Sequence record: NC_106597.1
Direction: 5' to 3' (one strand)
From: Escherichia phage BB1
Length of the DNA stretch: 64,000 bases
The translations under genes and the position numbers were made by a program. The notes beneath the pieces are model-generated. The model made no database searches and was not told where the DNA came from. It saw only the letters and a list, made by a program, of their open reading frames with translations. Shown in pieces: positions 4,286 through 52,834 of this stretch (position 1 is the first letter of the stretch; the number at the start of each line of letters is the position of its first letter).

Positions 4286-5758
4286 ATGACCTTGTTTAAC
4301 GTGCAAGCTGTAGTGTTGAAGATGCTTCTAGCTTCTGAACAGAAGCAAATAGCATTGGAAACATTCTCAAAACTGCATAAAGATCATTTTAATGACGCTT
4401 TCTCCTCAATTTACCAAGCCGTCCAGAATTATTATAAAAAATATAACACAATGCCGTCCATTGATGCACTGATGCTTGAGGCTAATAGGAACGCCCGCCT
4501 TTCTCAAGCTCTAGTCGTCTTAGCTAACACTCAAATTCCAGAAGTGAGCATGGAACAGGCACTTGAAGTCCTAGAGGCCGAATATACACAGGATTTATTC
4601 CTGAAGCTTCTAGAAACAGACGTGCTTCAAGATTTAACAATGCTGGATCAGGGAGAAATTCTCAACCGAGTTGCCTCCCTTCACTTAAAATTAGAAGAGA
4701 AAGTAACGAATACTGGAAAAGTATTCAACGCAGATAACATGCGTATTTTCCAGAGAGAAGAAGATACCAAACTGAACCTAATCGCTCTTGGTATTTGTAA
4801 TGAGTTCGACGCTCAAATTGGTTTAGCTCGCACAGAAACGTTACTGCTTGGTGGTTGGCGTGGTACTGGTAAATCCATTATCTGTTCAAACATACAGGTT
4901 CAGCAATATTTGAATGGAGATATTGCTCCATACTTCTCAATTGAGATGAAAGAACATGAAGTATTTAGACGTAATCTAGCCATGTTAGCTGGTGTATCAG
5001 CATTAGCAATGCGTAATAATACTCTAGAAGGTGCAGCTCTGTTGAGATTGGCCAGAACTAGAGCTAGAATGTTTAATGGGGGTGAAGAGCTTTTTGATAA
5101 CTTCGTTAAACAGTACACAATGGCTAAGATGAGTGATTTCTACGATATGGAGAGTAAGCTAATAGAGGGATATGAACTACATACTCCCATGATTATTGTT
5201 TATGATCCTGAACTGTCCATTACAACAGTTGACGTAGAATTAAATAAATTAGTTGCTAGATACGGAGATAAAGTTACAGTAGCTTTACTGGACTATATTA
5301 ACCAAACCCGACTTCCAGACTCTAAAACCATTGATATGTATGACTGGAAAGAACAGATGGTTGTTAGCTCGTCTTTCAAATCTATCTGCCAGAAACATAA
5401 CGTGGCTGGCGTAGCTCCTTACCAGATCGATCAAGATGGTAGAACACGTATGTCAAAGGGGATTCTTGATTCTGCAGACATGGCTGCTAATCTTAATGCT
5501 GCAAAAGCTGATAATGGTCAAGGTGCTATTATGTTTGACTTCGTTAAGACTCGTTCTTCTGATAGCGTGAAGTTTATGCCTAAAATGAACTGGGAAACCC
5601 TGCGGATGGATAACACTACCAACCTAGCAATGGAAGATATATCTCAAATGGAAGCTGAGTTCGTTATCCCTATTGAGAAGGATAAGCCGGCTCAACCTAA
5701 ACGTGCTAAGAAAGACAAAGCTGAAAATTCAACAGGTGAACAGGCCAGCGATATATGA
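4286..5758 (+). CDS. DnaB-like replicative helicase / RecA-fold ATPase
   Basis: P-loop LGGWRGTGKS; sits directly upstream of primase; track ORF start 4235 lies inside a terminator hairpin so start is probably ATG 4286 or TTG 4292. Confidence 0.55.
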   Translation: MTLFNVQAVVLKMLLASEQKQIALETFSKLHKDHFNDAFSSIYQAVQNYYKKYNTMPSIDALMLEANRNARLSQALVVLANTQIPEVSMEQALEVLEAEYTQDLFLKLLETDVLQDLTMLDQGEILNRVASLHLKLEEKVTNTGKVFNADNMRIFQREEDTKLNLIALGICNEFDAQIGLARTETLLLGGWRGTGKSIICSNIQVQQYLNGDIAPYFSIEMKEHEVFRRNLAMLAGVSALAMRNNTLEGAALLRLARTRARMFNGGEELFDNFVKQYTMAKMSDFYDMESKLIEGYELHTPMIIVYDPELSITTVDVELNKLVARYGDKVTVALLDYINQTRLPDSKTIDMYDWKEQMVVSSSFKSICQKHNVAGVAPYQIDQDGRTRMSKGILDSADMAANLNAAKADNGQGAIMFDFVKTRSSDSVKFMPKMNWETLRMDNTTNLAMEDISQMEAEFVIPIEKDKPAQPKRAKKDKAENSTGEQASDI

Positions 5759-22011: not shown

Positions 22012-24150
22012 TTACCTTATATGGATATACCCGTTTTGCAGGTCTATCTTCATTTTGTAAGATCCCTCTGGATTAGAGGATAGTGCGGCTGCACGATCAT
22101 ATATAATATTTACACCAATTTGTGATAAGAAAGCGTTATTAGCAACAATTTTACTAGCAGTTACCGTACCATTAACTATCATATCACCATGTAAAACCAT
22201 TGCAGGGCTAGCCCATGCTGAACCATTCCACTGCCTAGTGAATGCTGTTCCTGGTGCCCCACTTTTATACTCGGTTAATACATCATATTTAACAGGACCA
22301 GTACCAAAATTAGATGTAAAAAACGAATTAGCCTGAGAATCATTCCATGCCGTTAAGTTAGCAATAGCAAGAGAATACATTCCAGGACCACGTTGTCCGT
22401 CTGCTCCTGGCCGCCCATCAGCACCTGGTTTTCCATCGGCACCTGGTTTTCCATCAGCACCTGGTAGTCCATCAGCTCCCGGCTTACCATCTACCCCTTC
22501 TGTACCGCTCCATTGAACTACATCTGACCAACTAGTTCCGGATACTAATTGATTAGTAACAGGGTCCAGAGTACCCGTAGAACAGTAAATATTCTGAGTA
22601 TTAGATATTCTATTCGGCGGAGTTTTAGACCAACCAGAAGGTGGGTATGCAGGGCTTGTTGGTTTAGCAGGTAATGAAGTACCTAGAATATAAATAAATA
22701 CTGTTTGCTTACCTTGTATACCTGTTTCTATATCAATATCGCCATTAGGTGTACCAATTACAACTCCACTAGAAATTCTTAATGTATCACCATCGAAACG
22801 AATATATTGCGTAGCATTACCAATATCTACTTTTGGCTTCGCAGTAGCATTATCCATGCCCATCCAAATACCAGATTTTGTATCTCCCCAAGTTTTACCT
22901 TGAGTATAAATTGCTGGGTTGTCTTGACCAGTTAAGTTAGTCATTACAAAGTTCGCAGCATTAATGGTTTTAGTTATTACACTTCCATCAACGTTAATTA
23001 TCTTTTTAATAGGGTCAAAAGATATTGGTGCTTTTCCTTCTGCATCTAGAAGACCTATATTAATAGCACCTGTAGCAGCATCTATTAGGAAGGTTTGTTT
23101 CCAGGTAGATCCATCTTTGATCTTACCCTTAATGTACGCGTAATTTACTTCGATACCAGTTTCATTAACAAAACTATTATCTAATGGAGTACTCTCATTT
23201 AATATAAATGTCTGTACTGCGGAATCAGTAACATCTTGAGCATCTGGTCCCCAGGCAATAGATGACACTTTAAATTTATGCTCTACTTTCCATGGAAATG
23301 ATATAATTGTTGCTGACTGAGCAGCACCCACGTTGATTTTTTGTGCCTTAGTCCATCCAGTTCTAGCAAATTCTGCTGAATCTATATATGATAGAACGAA
23401 TTCACGAACGTTGGCGCCTGTCCCTCTATTCCAATCCCATTGCACACGTAAATCATAGCGTTCTTTACCATCCGCTATACGCGCAGCTTTAAACACAATA
23501 TTAACAGGAGCTGTAGGAGGTACAAAGTTATATCTAACTTCAAAGACAGTAGGATACTCATAGTATCCAGATGAATCAATAGTTACTCCGTCTGGCAGGG
23601 ATACTTGTCCAGAAATTCTTACCTTATAGGATCCGATTGGCACACCACCAAACATAATAGTTGGCATCAACGCACCAACATAATATTTAACCCACGGATT
23701 ATTAGCATTAGAATTATTTTTTAATTCTATAGTACAATAATCAGCTTCTCCTGTAGTATCTATATAAACTATTGGCGCTCCAACACCTACGTCTACAGGC
23801 TCTGATTCACATCTAACACCTGTAATTCTAGGTGCTGACTTCATTTTAAAAGTTTGTTTATCAGATAGATTAATACCTATCTGAGCATTAAGTAGTTCAG
23901 AGTCTATTATAGAATCATAAAATGCACCCTGAACTTCATAAGTTGTTGTAGGTTTTAAGTTATTAATAGTTACAGAAAAGGTATCAACTCCAGTAAAATC
24001 TCTACGAGTAACGTTGCTACCTTCTTTAAGCCAAAAAGATCTACCTATAACGTCATAATCAGAATAGATAGAATGCTGGATATACGCCAACGTATATCCA
24101 GTTAAGACGCTATTTAGAACCATTTTAGCTGGTGCATTATTTGAAATCAT
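22012..24150 (-). CDS. tail tip/baseplate protein (pb4-like) with collagen-like repeat
   Basis: 712 aa; G-x-x repeats ([34 protein letters not shown]); position between hub and fibre. Confidence 0.55.
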
Positions 24151-46578: not shown

Positions 46579-46657
46579 TTGTTACGTTCTCCATTAAAGG
46601 GATTTAGTTATTTCAGCATTACCCGCTATTTATAAGCGGGTAATAATAAATTAACTA

Positions 46658-47401: not shown

Positions 47402-49066
47402 TTATGCGAAGAATTTACCATTCTTAAAGTCGATCAAAGTACGCTGACCGTTTGCATAGGTAATTAAATGCGTTTGCGTCCAGCTTGACGCGCCAACGTT
47501 GTAACCCATATCCAGACTACCAGCTACTCCAGCGGTATAAACGCCACCGTAAATGCTAGCGGTATGGGTGTGTCCCGTGTTTAGCTTGCCCAATTTCTTA
47601 AACTGTTTAGGATTGCCACGACTGCCGTTAATGCCGTTGTGACCGTGTACACCGCACTCAATGCCTGCAATCTTGAAAGATTGGTCAGTGGTTAGGAAAA
47701 TGGCGTTAAACTCACAACCTGCAACCTTGCGCAGCGCATAATCTAGCACGTTAAAAGTATCATCATGATCACTGATCGCCGCGTAAATTGCAGCATTCAG
47801 GCGGTGATATAGTTCGGCGTTGGCTGGATCGTCTTTGATGTTAGCATTACGATCATCTAACCAGCGGGATAGCGCCAAATCGTGATTAGATTCAACAATG
47901 ATTGTTTGAGAGAAATCACGTTCCATTGATTCCAGCACGCGCCCCGTATCGATAAGATCATCCAGAACTTTATCACGTCCAGCGGCATACTGTTTTGCTA
48001 GGAATACACCGGATGCACGGTTATGATGATTGCGCGATGTAAAATCATGCACGTCATGAATAAACTGATATTTAGGTTTAAGAATATCAAGCAAGCTATT
48101 TTCGCCAGCCCATGACGCAACGGCACAATCATCATCTAATTTTTCGGCGTGAATATCGCCATATTGCAAGCCTAAAACATGCCCCGACGTTTCATAGCAT
48201 CCAGCAGGAGTAGCGCAAACATTCAGATCATAAAACACCCCGCTTTCATCCATCGTTTCAAGCTGGCGAACAAAAAATTCCCCGTCGTCGTCGAACTCAA
48301 CAATAAGCGCACCGAAGTTATGCAGCGCCTCGGCCTTTTGTCCTGCTTTCTGCTGAATGTAGTTTTTGAGCGTTGCCGTTCCGGTTGAATACATACGGCG
48401 CACTACTTCACCTTTTAAAGCTGGCACGCTTTCAGCGGTAATTTTAGCGTGACCAATTGCCAGCCCTTCAATATTTAAAGCCGTTGCAGTTTCTGCAAAT
48501 CCTGAAAGCGGATAGTCTGCGGTAGGCAAAACATTAATTTCAGCCATGAAAGCAAAACGGCGGTTATTTAAAAACACGTTTTTGCTGCAAATATATTTAT
48601 CAAATGCGGGATCGTATTTGATACCGTCTGCACCTTCTCCATTCTGGAAGCCGTTTTTATTATAAATATACTTAGAAACAAGCAAATCAGCACCGATATA
48701 TTCAGCGAATTTTTCCAGACTTGCTAAAAAGTTTTTATGTGGGAAAGTATTATTCTGAATCGACGTAATAATAAAGCGTTTACCCTGTTTTACTTCCCAT
48801 TGCTCAACCGTACTAGAAACAATCCCCGCCGCTTCTGGGCGCTCATCGTTTTTAATGGCTTTTGCTACTTTTGCCGCTTTCGGTTTAGCTGGTTTATTTG
48901 CTTCCAGCCAGTCGCAGATAGCGGTTGAATGCTTCGTTGTATCGTAGACCGCTTTTGATATATCGTCGCAGACTTCCAGTTTAGTAGCGCGCAGACGTTT
49001 ACCATAGAAATTAAAGTCAGCGGCCATTTTCAGGATAACGGTTTGTTTTTCTGCGGAAATAATCAT
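47402..49066 (-). CDS. A1: A1-like pre-early protein with metallophosphoesterase motifs
   Basis: 554 aa; GDIH, SNHD and GHTH motifs in calcineurin-like order. Confidence 0.65.
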   Translation of the reverse strand: MIISAEKQTVILKMAADFNFYGKRLRATKLEVCDDISKAVYDTTKHSTAICDWLEANKPAKPKAAKVAKAIKNDERPEAAGIVSSTVEQWEVKQGKRFIITSIQNNTFPHKNFLASLEKFAEYIGADLLVSKYIYNKNGFQNGEGADGIKYDPAFDKYICSKNVFLNNRRFAFMAEINVLPTADYPLSGFAETATALNIEGLAIGHAKITAESVPALKGEVVRRMYSTGTATLKNYIQQKAGQKAEALHNFGALIVEFDDDGEFFVRQLETMDESGVFYDLNVCATPAGCYETSGHVLGLQYGDIHAEKLDDDCAVASWAGENSLLDILKPKYQFIHDVHDFTSRNHHNRASGVFLAKQYAAGRDKVLDDLIDTGRVLESMERDFSQTIIVESNHDLALSRWLDDRNANIKDDPANAELYHRLNAAIYAAISDHDDTFNVLDYALRKVAGCEFNAIFLTTDQSFKIAGIECGVHGHNGINGSRGNPKQFKKLGKLNTGHTHTASIYGGVYTAGVAGSLDMGYNVGASSWTQTHLITYANGQRTLIDFKNGKFFA

Positions 49067-49156
49067 AGTAATAAAACTCCATTAAAGGGATTAGATTAAT
49101 AACGGCAATATTGCCAAATATAACGCCTCAAATAATAGGCGTTATAATTTGCAACA

Positions 49157-49354
49157 TTAATTTAAAGGCACTAGGCTAGAACTAACACCACAAGCAACGG
49201 CAGCGATAAAACAAAGCAAGCCCAAACGTTTTGCTAACTTAGATTTACGTTTAAAATAATATGAATCTAAATCATTTTGAAAATAAGCAAATAATAATGA
49301 GGCCGCCATAATAAACAAGCCTAGAATTAATGATTCAGTAGGAAAGAAAATCAT
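49157..49354 (-). CDS. small membrane protein (two predicted TM helices)
   Basis: 65-aa ORF with conserved upstream RBS element. Confidence 0.4.
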   Translation of the reverse strand: MIFFPTESLILGLFIMAASLLFAYFQNDLDSYYFKRKSKLAKRLGLLCFIAAVACGVSSSLVPLN

Positions 49355-49445
49355 TTTTTAAAACTCCTGATTTAAGGGAAGAAAATAACTATCGCTAAAC
49401 AGTTATATTATTGCCCCCTCACTAAAAGGGGGCAAGGTATAACTA

Positions 49446-49853
49446 TTATTCGCCTGCGGCTTGTTTTACTTCATCGGCAACGCCTAACAGTTGCGCTACT
49501 GCGTCCAGCGTTTCAAGTTTTGCACTTTCCAGACTTGCCAGATCGTCGGCGTCTTTGATAATGCCGGAATCAATAGCATGTTTAGCGATAACGCGCACAT
49601 AGTGAGCTTTACGCACAGAGCTACCGCCACCAACTTTACGCGGCTTATCGCTTTTTTGATAGGCTTTTGCACTGGTCAATTTTGAGCGAACGGATACAGG
49701 GGAAGCCGCGCCAACTGCTTTTGCAATCTCTTTTAAACCGTCGCTATTTGCGAAATCTAAACCGTTTTCATTAATTAACTGCTGATACATGGAAACAGCT
49801 TTCTGAGTGTTTTCTTCATTCCATGCGAATTTTGCGGTTTTAACGTTAGTCAT
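49446..49853 (-). CDS. putative DNA-binding protein (A2 candidate; shares motif with ORFs 300..710 and 3436..4203)
   Basis: 135 aa; basic stretch KPRKVGGGSSVRKAHYVR and HTH-like motif; conserved upstream RBS element. Confidence 0.4.
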   Translation of the reverse strand: MTNVKTAKFAWNEENTQKAVSMYQQLINENGLDFANSDGLKEIAKAVGAASPVSVRSKLTSAKAYQKSDKPRKVGGGSSVRKAHYVRVIAKHAIDSGIIKDADDLASLESAKLETLDAVAQLLGVADEVKQAAGE

Positions 49854-49951
49854 GATATAAACTCCTATTAGTTTAATTTAAGGGATTAGATTAACTTAAT
49901 GTTAATCGTTATATCCCCCTGAAATAAGGGGGATATAAAGTTAACACTAAA

Positions 49952-50203
49952 TTACAGAACAGCTTCCCATTTTTCGTTACGTTGAACAACCTTTACAACG
50001 TCGCCGGATTTAACGCGAACGTTAAAAACAGGTTTGCCGTTGTTACTACGTTCATTTTCAACATATACCGCGTCGATTGTATCAAACGGCATAAGCGCCG
50101 CGCCTTTAATACGTTCGGCCTTTCCGGTTAATTCATCCGTTTTAGTAACGAAAGGAATAAAAACGGATTGACCAATTTTTGGCGCGGTAATAACGTTTTG
50201 CAT
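49952..50203 (-). CDS. pre-early hypothetical protein
   Basis: 83-aa ORF with GGAG RBS; downstream of a large palindrome. Confidence 0.45.
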   Translation of the reverse strand: MQNVITAPKIGQSVFIPFVTKTDELTGKAERIKGAALMPFDTIDAVYVENERSNNGKPVFNVRVKSGDVVKVVQRNEKWEAVL

Positions 50204-50227
50204 AATATAAACTCCGAGTTATTTGGT

Positions 50228-50278
50228 GGATTGTTCCGCATTACCTGCTAGAAAGTAGCAGGTAATAAGTAACAATCC
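50228..50278. repeat. 51-bp compound palindrome
   Basis: GGATTGTT-CCGC-ATTACCTGCTA-GAAAG-TAGCAGGTAAT-AAGT-AACAATCC. Confidence 0.6.
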
Positions 50279-50406
50279 GCTCGCCAGTATAATCGATTTA
50301 AAGAACTCCACGTAGGCCGCTATATCCCAGTTAGGGGGCGGGATGCATTATGGTAAGCACCGACCGTCAAATTTTATCAAGTTATCGCTCTTATCGAACT
50401 GGGTAC

Positions 50407-50435
50407 ATCTTAAAACCTATCGGCTAGGTTGTCAA
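50407..50435 (-). promoter_or_regulatory. candidate sigma70 promoter for leftward pre-early transcription
   Basis: Minus strand -35 TTGACA (50430-50435), 17-bp spacer, -10 TAAGAT (50407-50412). Confidence 0.3.
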
Positions 50436-50635
50436 GCGGTTTTTTGCAGTTTTTTATGATTTTCTTTCAAGTCAATCATAATATTTCGCCAGATCATTTC
50501 TAAACCTTGCTGGCGACCTTTCTTGTACTGCGTGAATCTATATTTTACTGATCTTTGTGCTACTGTCAACAAGTTTTTTGTTTTGCTATCTAGTGCCTTA
50601 ATAGGCTTGCCAGTGATCAAAAGCGTTTGTTTCAT
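50432..50635 (-). CDS. hypothetical basic protein
   Basis: 67-aa ORF, first gene of the leftward operon. Confidence 0.35.
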   Translation of the reverse strand: MKQTLLITGKPIKALDSKTKNLLTVAQRSVKYRFTQYKKGRQQGLEMIWRNIMIDLKENHKKLQKTA

Positions 50636-51082
50636 ATCGTCGATTCCTTATAATGAATAAGTTTACCGCCGATAGGCTTTAAGATGTACCCAATTTTTAA
50701 AGAGCGTGGCGGTAAACTTCCCGCCGTGTAGTTCGTCATTGCCGCCCTACGAAATAAATAATAGGGGATTCCCGAAAATGGCGCAACCTTATTTTTGTAA
50801 AGAAACGTAAAGACACGATCCACCGGACGGCGTGCGGCGACGGCCTAAAATTAAAAGAAACGGGCGCGCGAATACCACAAAACATAGCAAATAGGCAAGT
50901 AATTTTTTCATTTATATTTACTTTGCCCTACTTGACAAAACCTAAAAAGCTCGTGACAGCGATAAACGGCTTATCCCTTTATGATGAGATGGCTAAAAAC
51001 TTCATCGCGTTCTAGGGCGTTTTAGGCGCATTCTAGCCTTGTTGATAACTTATCCCCAGAAGCAAAAATGAAATTTTCCTAG

Positions 51083-51115
51083 TTATCCACTTGACTTTTA
51101 TTTTCCAGTGGATAA
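51083..51115. promoter_or_regulatory. inverted pair of DnaA-box-like 9-mers
   Basis: TTATCCACT ... AGTGGATAA separated by 15 bp. Confidence 0.5.
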
Positions 51116-51398
51116 CTACTTATTTTATAAAATAAATTAATTGACTTTTATCTGTTAGTATGCATCGGAAAGATAGCAGACTAATAATTGCTAGGATGAT
51201 AATCATGCTGGTGGATTGTAACGGCTTAAATTATTAGCAGACTATTAATCACGGAAAATCTCATTAGCCAACTAACTATTTCATGATATATAATATACTT
51301 ATAAATTAATGAGAAATAATAATTATAATAAATAATAACTACAGTAAATAATAACTATAAGAAACTATCGGCCTAAGTGAGAACCACTATCATTTAAG

Positions 51399-51505
51399 TT
51401 ATTCACAACGTTATCCACAGCACAAAATAATTTGACACGATAGGCGGCGATATAAGGACTTTTGCACAGACTTATCCACAGGTTATTCCACTGTATAAAT
51501 ATACA
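51399..51505. promoter_or_regulatory. three direct DnaA-box-like sites plus CTGTATAAATATACA motif
   Basis: TTATTCACA, TTATCCACA (51411-51419), TTATCCACA (51472-51480), motif at 51491-51505. Confidence 0.55.
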
Positions 51506-51773
51506 AGGTAAAAAGGTAGTGTTAACAACTGCAATCAATTTTGAGCGGCCTAAATCGCATTCTAACGAGCTAAACGCTGCGGAGTAATATTAAAGTAAAG
51601 CCTTAATGCGGCGGCCTGGTGGCTTCACCGTGTTTTGCTCTTTATTACACCGCTGCGCGGTTAGCATAAAATTAGACGCTAGGCAAGGAAAATAAAAAGG
51701 TAAAATAATATTTGCCTATGCTAGAAAATTACCTTTATCATTCACTCACCGATTAACGAGGGAGGCCGAACAA

Positions 51774-52769
51774 ATGAGGCTGTATAAACCAGATAACGCA
51801 ACCGTCTTAAAAGGTGCATTGCGCAACCTGCTGGAGGGTAGCAAGTCAACCAGCATTAAACATTTTATTAACAAGGCTGAAACTATTCATCAAAACTTTT
51901 TTGATGATTATGACGGTTATGATATAGATAGTTTTCTACCACTATATAAGCAAGGGGCAACGCTTGTTTTATATAACCGTGATTGCCATATCTTTACAGG
52001 CAGGGGAGCGGGGCCGGATGCCGATTTTATTATTGCGCAGGGCAATAATATTGTTGCGTATCATAGCAATTCAGGCCGTCAATCATTTAATATAAATGGT
52101 TTTGAGCTTATTGGACTTGATCTGATAAATGGACTTTCTAGTATTGAGGGATTTTTAAATGTTATCTGGAAGTATTTACCCGCTGGATGGCATAAGCCGG
52201 ATAATGACGGATCTCAATATACCGCTATAATGGCTTTTGATGGCGACGGTAATTTTTTGTTACCACGGGAGCTATACCCGTATATTTATGATGGGGATAT
52301 TGAAAGCGCTGGTTTTTCTTTCTGGAAAGATGAAGATCAGATTATTGACAGTATAGAAAACCATGCTGTAAATTCTAACACTCAAACTACTGAAAACAAA
52401 GGAAAAAATACCATGACTAAGATTGCTAACATCGTTGCCGCTAATAAATCCGCTGTTGTAAATGCTGCAAAACTGGAGGCGGGTAAAATTGCATTAACTC
52501 AAATCACGAAAGTAGCGGCTAAAAAAGCGCCGTTTATGATTAAAGGTTATATTGATACGCCGATTGGTCGTGTAGTGATCGCTAACCTGCTAAGTGTAGC
52601 GGTTGACCAGTACGCACCGAGTAACCAAAAGGCGAAAGCGGTAGCAGGTGCAGCTATGGAGGCGGCAATGTTGGAAATGGTGCAAAGTTTTAACATCGCT
52701 GAAATGATTGATGAAATGGTAAAAGGTATTGATATTTCTACTTTTACCACTAGCACCGAAAGCGAGTAA
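51774..52769 (+). CDS. hypothetical protein
   Basis: 331-aa ORF with GAGGGAGG RBS; followed by GC hairpin. Confidence 0.5.
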   Translation: MRLYKPDNATVLKGALRNLLEGSKSTSIKHFINKAETIHQNFFDDYDGYDIDSFLPLYKQGATLVLYNRDCHIFTGRGAGPDADFIIAQGNNIVAYHSNSGRQSFNINGFELIGLDLINGLSSIEGFLNVIWKYLPAGWHKPDNDGSQYTAIMAFDGDGNFLLPRELYPYIYDGDIESAGFSFWKDEDQIIDSIENHAVNSNTQTTENKGKNTMTKIANIVAANKSAVVNAAKLEAGKIALTQITKVAAKKAPFMIKGYIDTPIGRVVIANLLSVAVDQYAPSNQKAKAVAGAAMEAAMLEMVQSFNIAEMIDEMVKGIDISTFTTSTESE

Positions 52770-52834
52770 TAATAACTAGCGGGGATTATTTCCCCGCTTT
52801 ACTATTCCCTTGTTAACTAATAGGAGGCTAATAA

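Follow-up and report, generated by a model that had tools for sequence, protein, structure and literature searches.

The DNA analyzed here, referred to as the window, is a stretch of 64,000 nucleotides from Escherichia phage BB1 (NC_106597.1) in which a short gap separates two genes of the minus strand. The 901 bases around this gap have matches in 443 phage records, the best of which are Tequintavirus and related T5-like phages with 95–99% identity. In the genomes with annotated terminal repeats, the matched region is located 4.2–5.1 kb from the left end, which corresponds to the first-step-transfer region. On the basis of these similarities we assign the window to a T5-like phage (Tequintavirus) and the gap to its terminal-repeat pre-early region, with the operon on the minus strand. 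The order of the minus-strand genes agrees with the T5 records: hdi, the gap, T5.007, A2, T5.005, A1, T5.003, T5.002 and dmp. The positions of those that matter here are as follows.

50635–50432, minus strand: hdi/T5.008, directly upstream of the gap
50204–50431: the gap (228 bp), between the open reading frames 49952–50203 and 50432–50635, both on the minus strand
49952–50203, minus strand: T5.007 homolog (83 amino acids, DUF7177), first gene past the gap, with its ATG at 50203–50201
49853–49446, minus strand: A2
49354–49157, minus strand: T5.005
49066–47402, minus strand: A1
46578–45844, minus strand: dmp

The product of the T5.007 homolog appears as a small SH3-like beta-barrel in a structure model, with weak fold matches. 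Deletion of gene 007 in T5 has almost no phenotype (2026 preprint), so an effect specific to 007 expression would be subtle. Transcription signals around the gap, all read on the minus strand, are listed below.

50758–50786, minus strand: promoter-like TTGCGC-17-TATTAT, conserved across all lineages aligned
50542–50569, minus strand: P-H22 ortholog within hdi (TTGACA-16-TAAAAT), a tandem promoter upstream of P-D/E20, annotated in T5
50436–50460, minus strand: A-tract-rich, UP-element-like region AAAAAACTGCAAAAAACCGC, upstream of the −35 hexamer
50430–50435, minus strand: −35 hexamer TTGACA, overlapping the hdi stop codon (50432–50434)
50407–50412, minus strand: −10 hexamer TAAGAT, after a 17-nt spacer
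50400, minus strand: predicted transcription start (A, 7 nt past the −10), equivalent to T5 4683

A first-pass annotation of this DNA had proposed a minus-strand promoter, TTGACA-17-TAAGAT (50435–50407), and was right in doing so. The site has 10 of 12 consensus matches, and such a sigma-70-type match is weak when taken alone, as a scan of the window returned 42 sites for 29.6 expected. Conservation is more telling. The site is kept in all 28 distinct close relatives, with an invariant −35 hexamer in 27 of them, and in distant lineages the −35 reads TTGACA or TTGACT and the −10 reads TAATAT or TATTAT, with the 17-nt spacing retained. T5 has TTGACA (4718–4713), 17 nt and TAAGAT (4695–4690) at the homologous place, and the window promoter aligns with T5 4718–4690, within the feature that AY692264 annotates as ‘promoter P-D/E 20’ (4664–4738, complement). 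AY587007 annotates T5 4663–4737 as ‘putative pre-early promoter T5P1’. The RefSeq record of T5, NC_005859, puts the P-D/E 20 label at 4338–4664 and thereby leaves out the hexamers; these coordinates look misplaced by a coordinate error. P-D/E20 of T5 (Bujard laboratory), whose activity was measured in T5, sits at the same place, between the end of hdi and the start of T5.007, with identical hexamers, 17-nt spacing, an A-rich upstream sequence and ~90% identity over the core; a few spacer bases differ, none of them material. By position and similarity, we identify the window promoter as the ortholog of T5 P-D/E20, that is, as an element already known and not a new one.

P-H22 and P-D/E20 are experimentally characterized strong promoters of T5 that overlap hdi fully and partly, respectively, and that prevented cloning of the T5 locus (2026 preprint). 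Transcription from P-H22 was mapped in T5 by primer extension (Klimuk et al. 2020). If the 75-nt T5 annotation 4664–4738 is taken as −55 to +20, transcription from the window promoter would start at 50400. The A-tract-rich region at 50436–50460, which recurs ahead of P-H22 (direct repeat D1), may function like an UP element. The gap has the size of 228 bp initially given for it, but it does not hold the entire promoter since the −35 hexamer straddles its edge. Nor is it the head of the operon, as had been thought, because P-H22 (50569–50542) and the promoter-like site at 50786–50758 are both found upstream in the same orientation; the latter is predicted to start a transcript bearing a boxA. 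The gap is best explained as the promoter and leader of the principal leftward transcription unit among the pre-early genes of a T5-like phage. Within that leader we distinguish the following elements.

50204–50400, minus strand: untranslated leader of ~197 nt of the T5.007-A2-005-A1-003-002-dmp mRNA from P-D/E20 (fold z = −3.0)
50342–50361, minus strand: small leader hairpin GGUGC-N10-GCAUC, in T5-type phages only
50228–50278, minus strand: palindrome (51 bp), read as an RNA stem-loop in the leader
50212–50215, minus strand: Shine-Dalgarno sequence GGAG, 8 nt upstream of the T5.007 ATG (50203–50201)

The dominant element is the palindrome. Its 23-nt arms (50228–50250 and 50256–50278) are complementary at 20 of 23 positions (87%) and surround a 5-nt center, GAAAG. 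The outer stem has 8 bp (GGATTGTT/AACAATCC) and the inner stem 11 bp (ATTACCTGCTA/TAGCAGGTAAT), with a non-complementary 4×4 block (CCGC/AAGT) between them; repeat and fold analysis thus confirmed the 51-bp nested palindrome with stems of 8 and 11 bp that had been noticed in the letters. Read on the sense strand, the hairpin is GGAUUGUU/ACUU/AUUACCUGCUA/CUUUC/UAGCAGGUAAU/GCGG/AACAAUCC, and its arms make 19–20 pairs, a helix of about two turns on the coding strand downstream of the promoter. It occupies approximately positions +123 to +173 of the predicted P-D/E20 transcript and does not overlap the promoter. It ends about 12 nt ahead of the T5.007 Shine-Dalgarno sequence, and the ribosome-binding site is not sequestered by it in the leader fold. 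Hairpins of this size class (arms of at least 18 nt, at most 3 mismatches, loops of 3–13 nt) occur three times in the 64 kb, compared to 0–1 (mean 0.1) per sequence in 20 first-order Markov simulations; one of the other two is in the same operon and the remaining one is terminator-like. The predicted fold energy is −28.1 kcal/mol on the sense (minus) strand and −31.9 kcal/mol on the plus strand, with z-scores of −7.5 and −8.8, respectively. These values confirm that the palindrome is far beyond chance.

The small hairpin upstream of it emerged from a consensus fold of 22 T5-type leaders; for each of alignment pairs 48-63 and 49-62, double changes preserve complementarity in 3 sequences. We rejected a leader mini-ORF (AUG CAU CCC GCC CCC UAA), which has no Shine-Dalgarno sequence and lacks its AUG in one of the loci compared (L016), and also rejected an intrinsic terminator, the 41% G+C hairpin being followed by ACCAAAUAACUC without a U tract. 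A search of positions 49000–52000 against Rfam 15 (E ≤ 1) returned nothing relevant, its sole match being a chance-level miRNA located elsewhere.

For comparison we used 37 loci of viral contigs together with five phages from GenBank and four contigs from metagenomes, all of which encode a T5.007 homolog; a 007 protein profile run against the viral contigs gave no loci beyond those 37. We observed the same organization at all of these loci, namely hdi, a gap of ~150–260 nt, 007 and A2. The compound hairpin is present in 31 out of 31 distinct leaders, which represent Tequintavirus, Epseptimavirus, Sugarlandvirus and four metagenomic T5-like lineages. It has 18–27 pairs and arms of roughly 20–25 nt, and ends 10–25 nt before the Shine-Dalgarno sequence. 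In Tequintavirus the hairpin is nearly fixed; its variants are double changes from C-G to U-A or to A-U, along with several U.G wobbles. Epseptimavirus retains the lower stem, in which a G-C pair is exchanged for A-U, and has a different upper stem, UAAUAGCGUUUC/GAGGCGCUAUUG; further upper stems, each distinct, are found in loci L048, L049, L046 and L047 and in the Klebsiella Sugarlandviruses. Our results show that the structure and position of the hairpin are conserved while the sequence of its upper stem differs between lineages.

This conservation of pairing is also apparent position by position. In an alignment of 19 sequences, 95.5% of the paired cells are complementary, versus 30–56% when the partner is slid, and 9 of the 20 pairs have changes on both sides. 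None of 500 shuffles matched the observed value on any of the five measures used. Where the G-C pair of the lower stem is lost, UUUC/GGAA pairs are gained across the former internal loop, so that the helix keeps its length of ~21–22 bp, about two turns. A U.C mismatch is found in the lower stem of about half of the T5-type sequences, and the apical loop varies freely, to the point of being inverted in two lineages, where GAAAG replaces CUUUC.

Watson-Crick covariation alone does not distinguish an RNA hairpin from a DNA palindrome. The non-Watson-Crick cells of the operon strand are G.U in 27 cases, 17 of them at one nearly fixed pair, and A.C in 6, all of the latter at the apical end, in three sequences whose loop is enlarged. 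This asymmetry may, to a moderate degree, favor folding of the transcribed strand. Given that the plus-strand fold is slightly more stable in the window, the strand assignment rests on the direction of transcription and on this modest excess of G.U. Several observations jointly favor RNA on the operon strand: the genes and promoters here all point leftward with the palindrome inside the transcribed leader, G.U exceeds A.C, compound hairpins exist at other junctions of the operon where there is no promoter, and a covariance model of the 007-leader hairpin finds the hairpin that precedes dmp. We conclude that the most plausible reading of the palindrome is a conserved RNA stem-loop of the untranslated leader rather than a DNA operator.

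The latter possibility had been the initial suggestion for this palindrome, in the form of an operator or cruciform-forming site controlling the shut-off of pre-early transcription. In this scenario a phage early protein such as A1 or A2 would bind the DNA palindrome and stop transcription as a roadblock past P-D/E20. A large and near-perfect palindrome adjoining a strong promoter is compatible with this scenario, as is the fact that the compensatory changes preserve DNA symmetry too. Moreover, A2 is a DNA-binding protein, and A1 associates with RNA polymerase and is needed for shut-off (Klimuk et al. 2020; 2026 preprint). The palindromic operators usually found in phages and bacteria likewise display dyad symmetry near a promoter, but they are much shorter than the one described here. 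Furthermore, the palindrome is situated 122–172 nt past the predicted start, away from the promoter, and the half-site formed by the upper stem is replaced between genera, with its pairing and location unchanged. A wobble asymmetry that favors one strand is nothing that duplex DNA would select, and equivalent hairpins are found between cistrons that have no promoter. Searches of the 64-kb window with a covariance model of the hairpin and with both half-sites (up to 2 mismatches) revealed, apart from the paralog before dmp, no other palindromic copy, be it near P-H22, the upstream promoter-like site or the rightward pre-early promoter. Two other exact copies of ATTACCTGCTA, at 22665 and 60598, were discarded because they are in coding sequence and not palindromic. 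Finally, P-H22 transcripts fall off together with those of the rightward P11 (Klimuk et al. 2020), hence a shut-off operator private to P-D/E20 would not explain shut-off. We consider an operator or cruciform at this position to be extremely improbable.

The palindrome is not an isolated structure. Compound hairpins with arms of ~22–28 nt are found in five leader or intercistronic gaps of the operon, before 007, A2, 005, A1 and dmp. The four that follow the leader hairpin are given here.

49892–49954, minus strand: compound hairpin of 15 bp + 12 bp, from the T5.007 stop to the A2 start
49398–49447, minus strand: compound hairpin of 10 bp + 10 bp, from the A2 stop to the T5.005 start
49107–49158, minus strand: hairpin with 22-nt arms, from the T5.005 stop to the A1 start
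46605–46657, minus strand: paralogous compound hairpin, from the T5.002 stop to the dmp start, with the upper stem AUUACCCGCU

Common to the hairpins of the 007 leader and of the dmp junction are AUUACCYGCU as upper stem and GGUAAUGCKGAA as 3′ motif. A covariance model trained on 007-leader hairpins only detects the pre-dmp hairpin with E = 7e-9 in T5, 5e-8 in phiR2-01 and 9e-6 in the window; in the whole 64-kb window it finds nothing besides the 007-leader hairpin and this paralog. Downstream of each of the dmp, A1, 005 and A2 hairpins come UCCCUUWAAU and, after it, GGAG. Exact copies of UCCCUUWAAU number four in the 64 kb, all of them at the dmp, A1, 005 and A2 junctions, and the 007 leader contains a variant. 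The A1-leader hairpin is nearly unchanged in sequence in Klebsiella phage IME260. This set of hairpins and motifs is unannotated in three T5 GenBank records. Altogether, our analysis places the palindrome in a set of conserved hairpins and motifs that extends over the operon.

The part of the shared 3′ motif that reads AAUGCKGAA, together with the near-invariant A1-leader hairpin, suggests sequence-specific recognition, which could be exerted by a protein rather than by RNase III. The main rival to the reading that we prefer is for this reason a specific RNA-binding factor, as pointed to by the loop motif common to the 007 and dmp hairpins. The hairpin would then be either the RNA site of a phage pre-early protein governing how the 007 and dmp messages are translated or how stable they are, or a nut-like element that, with the boxA of the leader, renders RNA polymerase resistant to termination. 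GGUAAUGCKGAA occupies the 3′ side of the internal loop in both hairpins of T5-type phages, and its phiR2-01 versions are AUUGUGGAA and AAUGCUGAA. A canonical boxA is found ~45 nt upstream of the hairpin in the leaders of Epseptimavirus, Sugarlandvirus and the metagenomic lineages, and the succession of promoter, boxA, hairpin and gene resembles lambda nutL. A1, which is required for pre-early shut-off, co-purifies with RNA polymerase (Klimuk et al. 2020; 2026 preprint). In the 007 leader of T5-type phages a canonical sense-strand boxA is absent, and in that of the window only the degenerate GAGTTCTTTAAATCGATT (50308–50291) is seen; the reverse complement of boxA, CGCTCTTA, is carried by the other strand of this leader (50386–50393). 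Recognition by such a dedicated protein seems to us unlikely, though well worth keeping in mind.

The hairpin could also act as a pause site or as an attenuator at which a fraction of the transcripts initiated at P-D/E20 and further upstream would end, thereby tuning the entry of polymerase into 007-dmp. It has the stability (−28 kcal/mol) and the location in an untranslated leader that such a device would call for, and the presence of boxA-type antitermination signals in the same unit would be sensible if termination needed to be overridden. Against this stand the absence of a U tract after the stem in any lineage (AAUCC ACCAAAUAACUC), the fact that a terminator scan of the window does not report the hairpin, and the nature of its stems, which are long and A/U-rich, unlike the intrinsic terminators of the window such as the one at 52778–52798. 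Attenuation is, in our opinion, highly unlikely.

We rank RNase III-type processing first because of the 23-nt arms, the internal loop, the location ahead of a start codon and the repetition of such hairpins along an early operon transcribed by the host. By analogy with known systems, we estimate at roughly 60% the probability that the leader hairpin acts in RNA and is processed or stabilized by host RNase III. Host sigma-70 RNA polymerase would start at the P-D/E20 ortholog near 50400 and produce an untranslated leader of ~197 nt. The palindrome would act after transcription, as an RNA stem-loop with an 8-bp lower stem, a 4×4 internal loop and an upper stem of 11–12 bp. Host RNase III would then cut the hairpins before 007, A2, 005, A1 and dmp, separating the leader and the cistrons from each other, and the hairpin-protected ends left behind could set the relative lifetimes and the translation of the pre-early messages. 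The sequence features, their orthology to P-D/E20 and the conserved, covarying pairing of the hairpin are established by our comparison; formation of the structure in RNA is inferred, and RNase III is the putative enzyme, chosen solely by likeness to other operons. In vivo RNase III cleaves intramolecular stems, and it accommodates a double-stranded RNA of ~22 bp (Altuvia et al. 2018, PMC6212723). Our literature search found no paper linking T5 and RNase III.

Further RNA signals are located upstream of the gap, in the region that would be transcribed from the promoter-like site at 50786–50758. They form a leader module of their own.

50668–50725, minus strand: upstream leader module, made of a boxB-like hairpin, boxA and inverted repeat A′ (IRA′)
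50725–50708, minus strand: boxB-like hairpin GGCGG-GAAGUUUA-CCGCC, with an N8 loop
50706–50694, minus strand: boxA CGCUCUUUAAAAA, directly preceding IRA′
50695–50668, minus strand: IRA′, 5′ arm of a long-range helix whose 3′ arm is 50424–50397
50397–50424, no strand assigned: inverted repeat A (IRA), covering the −10 hexamer, the 12 nt of spacer before it and positions +1 to +4

IRA and IRA′, which are annotated in AY587007 (Wang et al.), are 28 nt long, 93% complementary and 243 nt apart across hdi. They stay complementary in 14 distinct lineages though their sequence changes, with 31 G.U and 4 A.C among the non-Watson-Crick positions of the operon strand. This pattern points to an RNA duplex that would form in transcripts started further upstream. 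The core of promoter P-D/E20 doubles as the 3′ arm of this covarying long-range RNA helix. In 44 of the 45 loci compared, one or two copies of the 9-mer GCTCTTTAA are found, without exception on the operon strand. In the T5-type P-D/E20 leader the canonical boxA is gone and its complement AAGAGCG is found within an extended inverted repeat. No paper mentioning boxA together with T5 came up in our literature search.

Pre-early genes of T5 are turned on within seconds and off within minutes, and how this is achieved has been a question since the 1970s. A1 is needed for pre-early shut-off (Klimuk et al. 2020; 2026 preprint), and one of these two reports calls the class-switching mechanisms of T5 unknown. 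Our analysis turns the palindrome from a speculative operator into a testable RNA element: an unannotated, probable RNA stem-loop, of a kind known from leaders and cistron junctions of early phage operons, located behind a known promoter. If the hairpins are RNase III sites, T5 joins T7 and lambda in using host RNase III for early expression; if they bind a phage protein instead, that protein becomes a candidate for the missing shut-off factor. Strong promoters combined with structured leaders explain the resistance of this locus to cloning (2026 preprint), and the same promoters and leaders are of relevance to the engineering of T5-like therapeutic phages.

The closest parallel to the hairpin series is provided by the early operon of T7, likewise a polycistronic operon transcribed by the host polymerase, with its RNase III sites R0.3, R0.5, R1, R1.1 and R1.3. 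When folded in the same manner, the T7 sites have two stems around an internal loop and a motif common to the 3′ side of that loop. In both phages, paralogous hairpins with arms of roughly two helical turns are found in the leader and at cistron junctions. The T7 sites lie 27–35 nt before the next start codon in four cases out of five and 120 nt before it at R1.1. Their coordinates, which we take to be those of Dunn and Studier (1983), were checked against the conserved CCUUUAUGAU loops, with which they coincide. The two sets of hairpins are without sequence similarity, and those of the T5 type have a symmetric (4×4) internal loop and an upper stem of 11–12 bp versus 9–10 bp in T7. Cleavage by RNase III is known for the T7 sites, to which the T5-like hairpins are likened from their sequence.

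Phage lambda offers a second precedent. In the pL leader, nutL (boxA-boxB) is reportedly followed by a large stem-loop sensitive to RNase III, close upstream of the N ribosome-binding site. The pL order of promoter, boxA, large hairpin, Shine-Dalgarno sequence and first gene is the one seen in the leaders of Epseptimavirus, Sugarlandvirus and the metagenomic lineages, whereas in the window and in T5 the leader boxA is lost or degenerate (GAGUUCUUUAAAUCGAUU, 50308–50291). Neither a lambda-like small boxB nor an N-like protein was identified for the 007 leader.

The upstream module finds its counterpart in bacterial rRNA operons. In the rrnB leader of E. coli, too, a boxB hairpin precedes the boxA, ACUGCUCUUUAACAAUUU, and phages phiR2-01 and IME260 have identities of 18 and 19 nt to the rrnB boxA region. 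A tentative idea, which we hold with more doubt than confidence, is that the leftward pre-early operon copies the logic of an rRNA operon, with a conserved promoter feeding a boxB-boxA leader that recruits the Nus antitermination machinery of the host, a long-range helix and two-turn hairpins, the palindrome among them, each with UCCCUUWAAU behind it. Antitermination, RNase III processing and possibly a phage factor reading the shared motifs would then make up an undescribed RNA-level programme that sets both the burst of pre-early expression and its rapid, A1-dependent shut-off. The rrn-like module lies outside the gap except for its 3′ arm (50397–50424). In E. coli rrn, boxB and boxA are followed by one strand of the long-range 16S RNase III stem, an arrangement shared by the upstream module; the helix encloses rRNA in the rrn operon and the small protein gene hdi in the phage.

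Analysis of the region around hdi on the minus strand of the BB1 window revealed the following elements:

50758-50786, minus strand: promoter-like site TTGCGC-17-TATTAT, with duplicated TCTTTAC motifs 5′ of it
50694-50725, minus strand: small hairpin GGCGG-GAAGUUUA-CCGCC followed directly by a boxA, CGCUCUUUAAAAA, both upstream of hdi
50636-50743, minus strand: T5.009 homolog, an annotated ORF of 35 codons
50397-50424 with 50668-50695: long-range inverted repeat pair IRA/IRA′ (inverted repeat A/A′ of Wang et al.), extending to about 50385-50706 and enclosing hdi

Both the TTGCGC-17-TATTAT site and the predicted start of its transcript (UUAUYUCGUAGGGCGGCAA) are kept across every lineage aligned, and the counterpart of the site carries no promoter annotation in the T5 records. 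This candidate promoter would be the true head of the leftward operon. The annotated pre-early promoter P-D/E20 lies at the 3′ end of hdi, and its core forms the 3′ arm of the IRA/IRA′ pair. Its label in the RefSeq T5 record (NC_005859) covers 327 bp (4338-4664) that leave the promoter hexamers outside, probably a coordinate error in the annotation, and the Paris-Orsay T5 record (AY692264) places it correctly at 4664-4738. IRA and IRA′ covary: over 14 lineages we counted 349 Watson-Crick positions, 31 G.U pairs (on the operon strand), 4 A.C and 8 other combinations. These pairing counts suggest that the two arms form an RNA duplex in transcripts initiated at the putative upstream promoter, and such a duplex would be a likely RNase III substrate.

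Further elements were observed in the leaders of the pre-early genes and in the space between the divergent pre-early units:

51090-51125, minus strand: hairpin formed by a pair of inverted sequences that resemble DnaA boxes, TTATCCAC and GTGGATAA
49876-49885, 49370-49379, 49081-49090 and 46593-46602, minus strand: UCCCUUWAAU copies before A2, 005, A1 and dmp, respectively
49104-49158, minus strand: hairpin before A1; a second small palindrome, GGCAAUAUUGCC, overlaps its 3′ arm

The UCCCUUWAAU motif occurs exactly four times in the 64 kb, each time downstream of an intercistronic hairpin and ahead of the Shine-Dalgarno sequence that serves a leftward pre-early gene; with a variant also found before 007 in T5, it could represent a shared translational or stability signal. 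Because of the overlapping palindrome, two alternative structures are possible upstream of the essential A1 gene. In Klebsiella phage IME260 the sequence of this hairpin is almost the same, whereas protein identity is only about 55%. In the hairpin of the 007 leader, alignment of close relatives revealed that the apical loop and closing base read GAAAG in L018/L020 and L025/L026 instead of CUUUC. This is a precise inversion of the kind that template switching across a palindrome would produce, and it shows that the loop sequence is free of constraint. The DnaA-box-like hairpin is located in the non-coding stretch that separates the divergent units, in agreement with Davison's discussion of DnaA boxes (bioRxiv 866236). 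A weak match to Rfam mir-3012 (51067-51131, E = 0.03) probably reflects a chance resemblance to this hairpin.

The T5.009 homolog occupies the same stretch as the boxB-boxA-IRA′ leader. Neither its ATG nor its reading frame is conserved in Epseptimavirus or IME260, in which the RNA motifs of the leader are kept, and 009 is present in less than 15% of Demerecviridae according to a preprint; T5.009 may not be a gene. Judged by its sequence, the hairpin and boxA at 50694-50725 is a predicted rrn-type antitermination signal. We found no paper connecting boxA with T5 in the searchable literature. Counterparts of the boxA region are located at 1073-1090 in L042 and at 1078-1092 and about 589-607 in L043, two of the relatives compared. 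Epseptimavirus and Sugarlandvirus carry a further boxA immediately 3′ of their P-D/E20-like promoter, in which 18-19 nucleotides are identical to the boxA region of E. coli rrnB.
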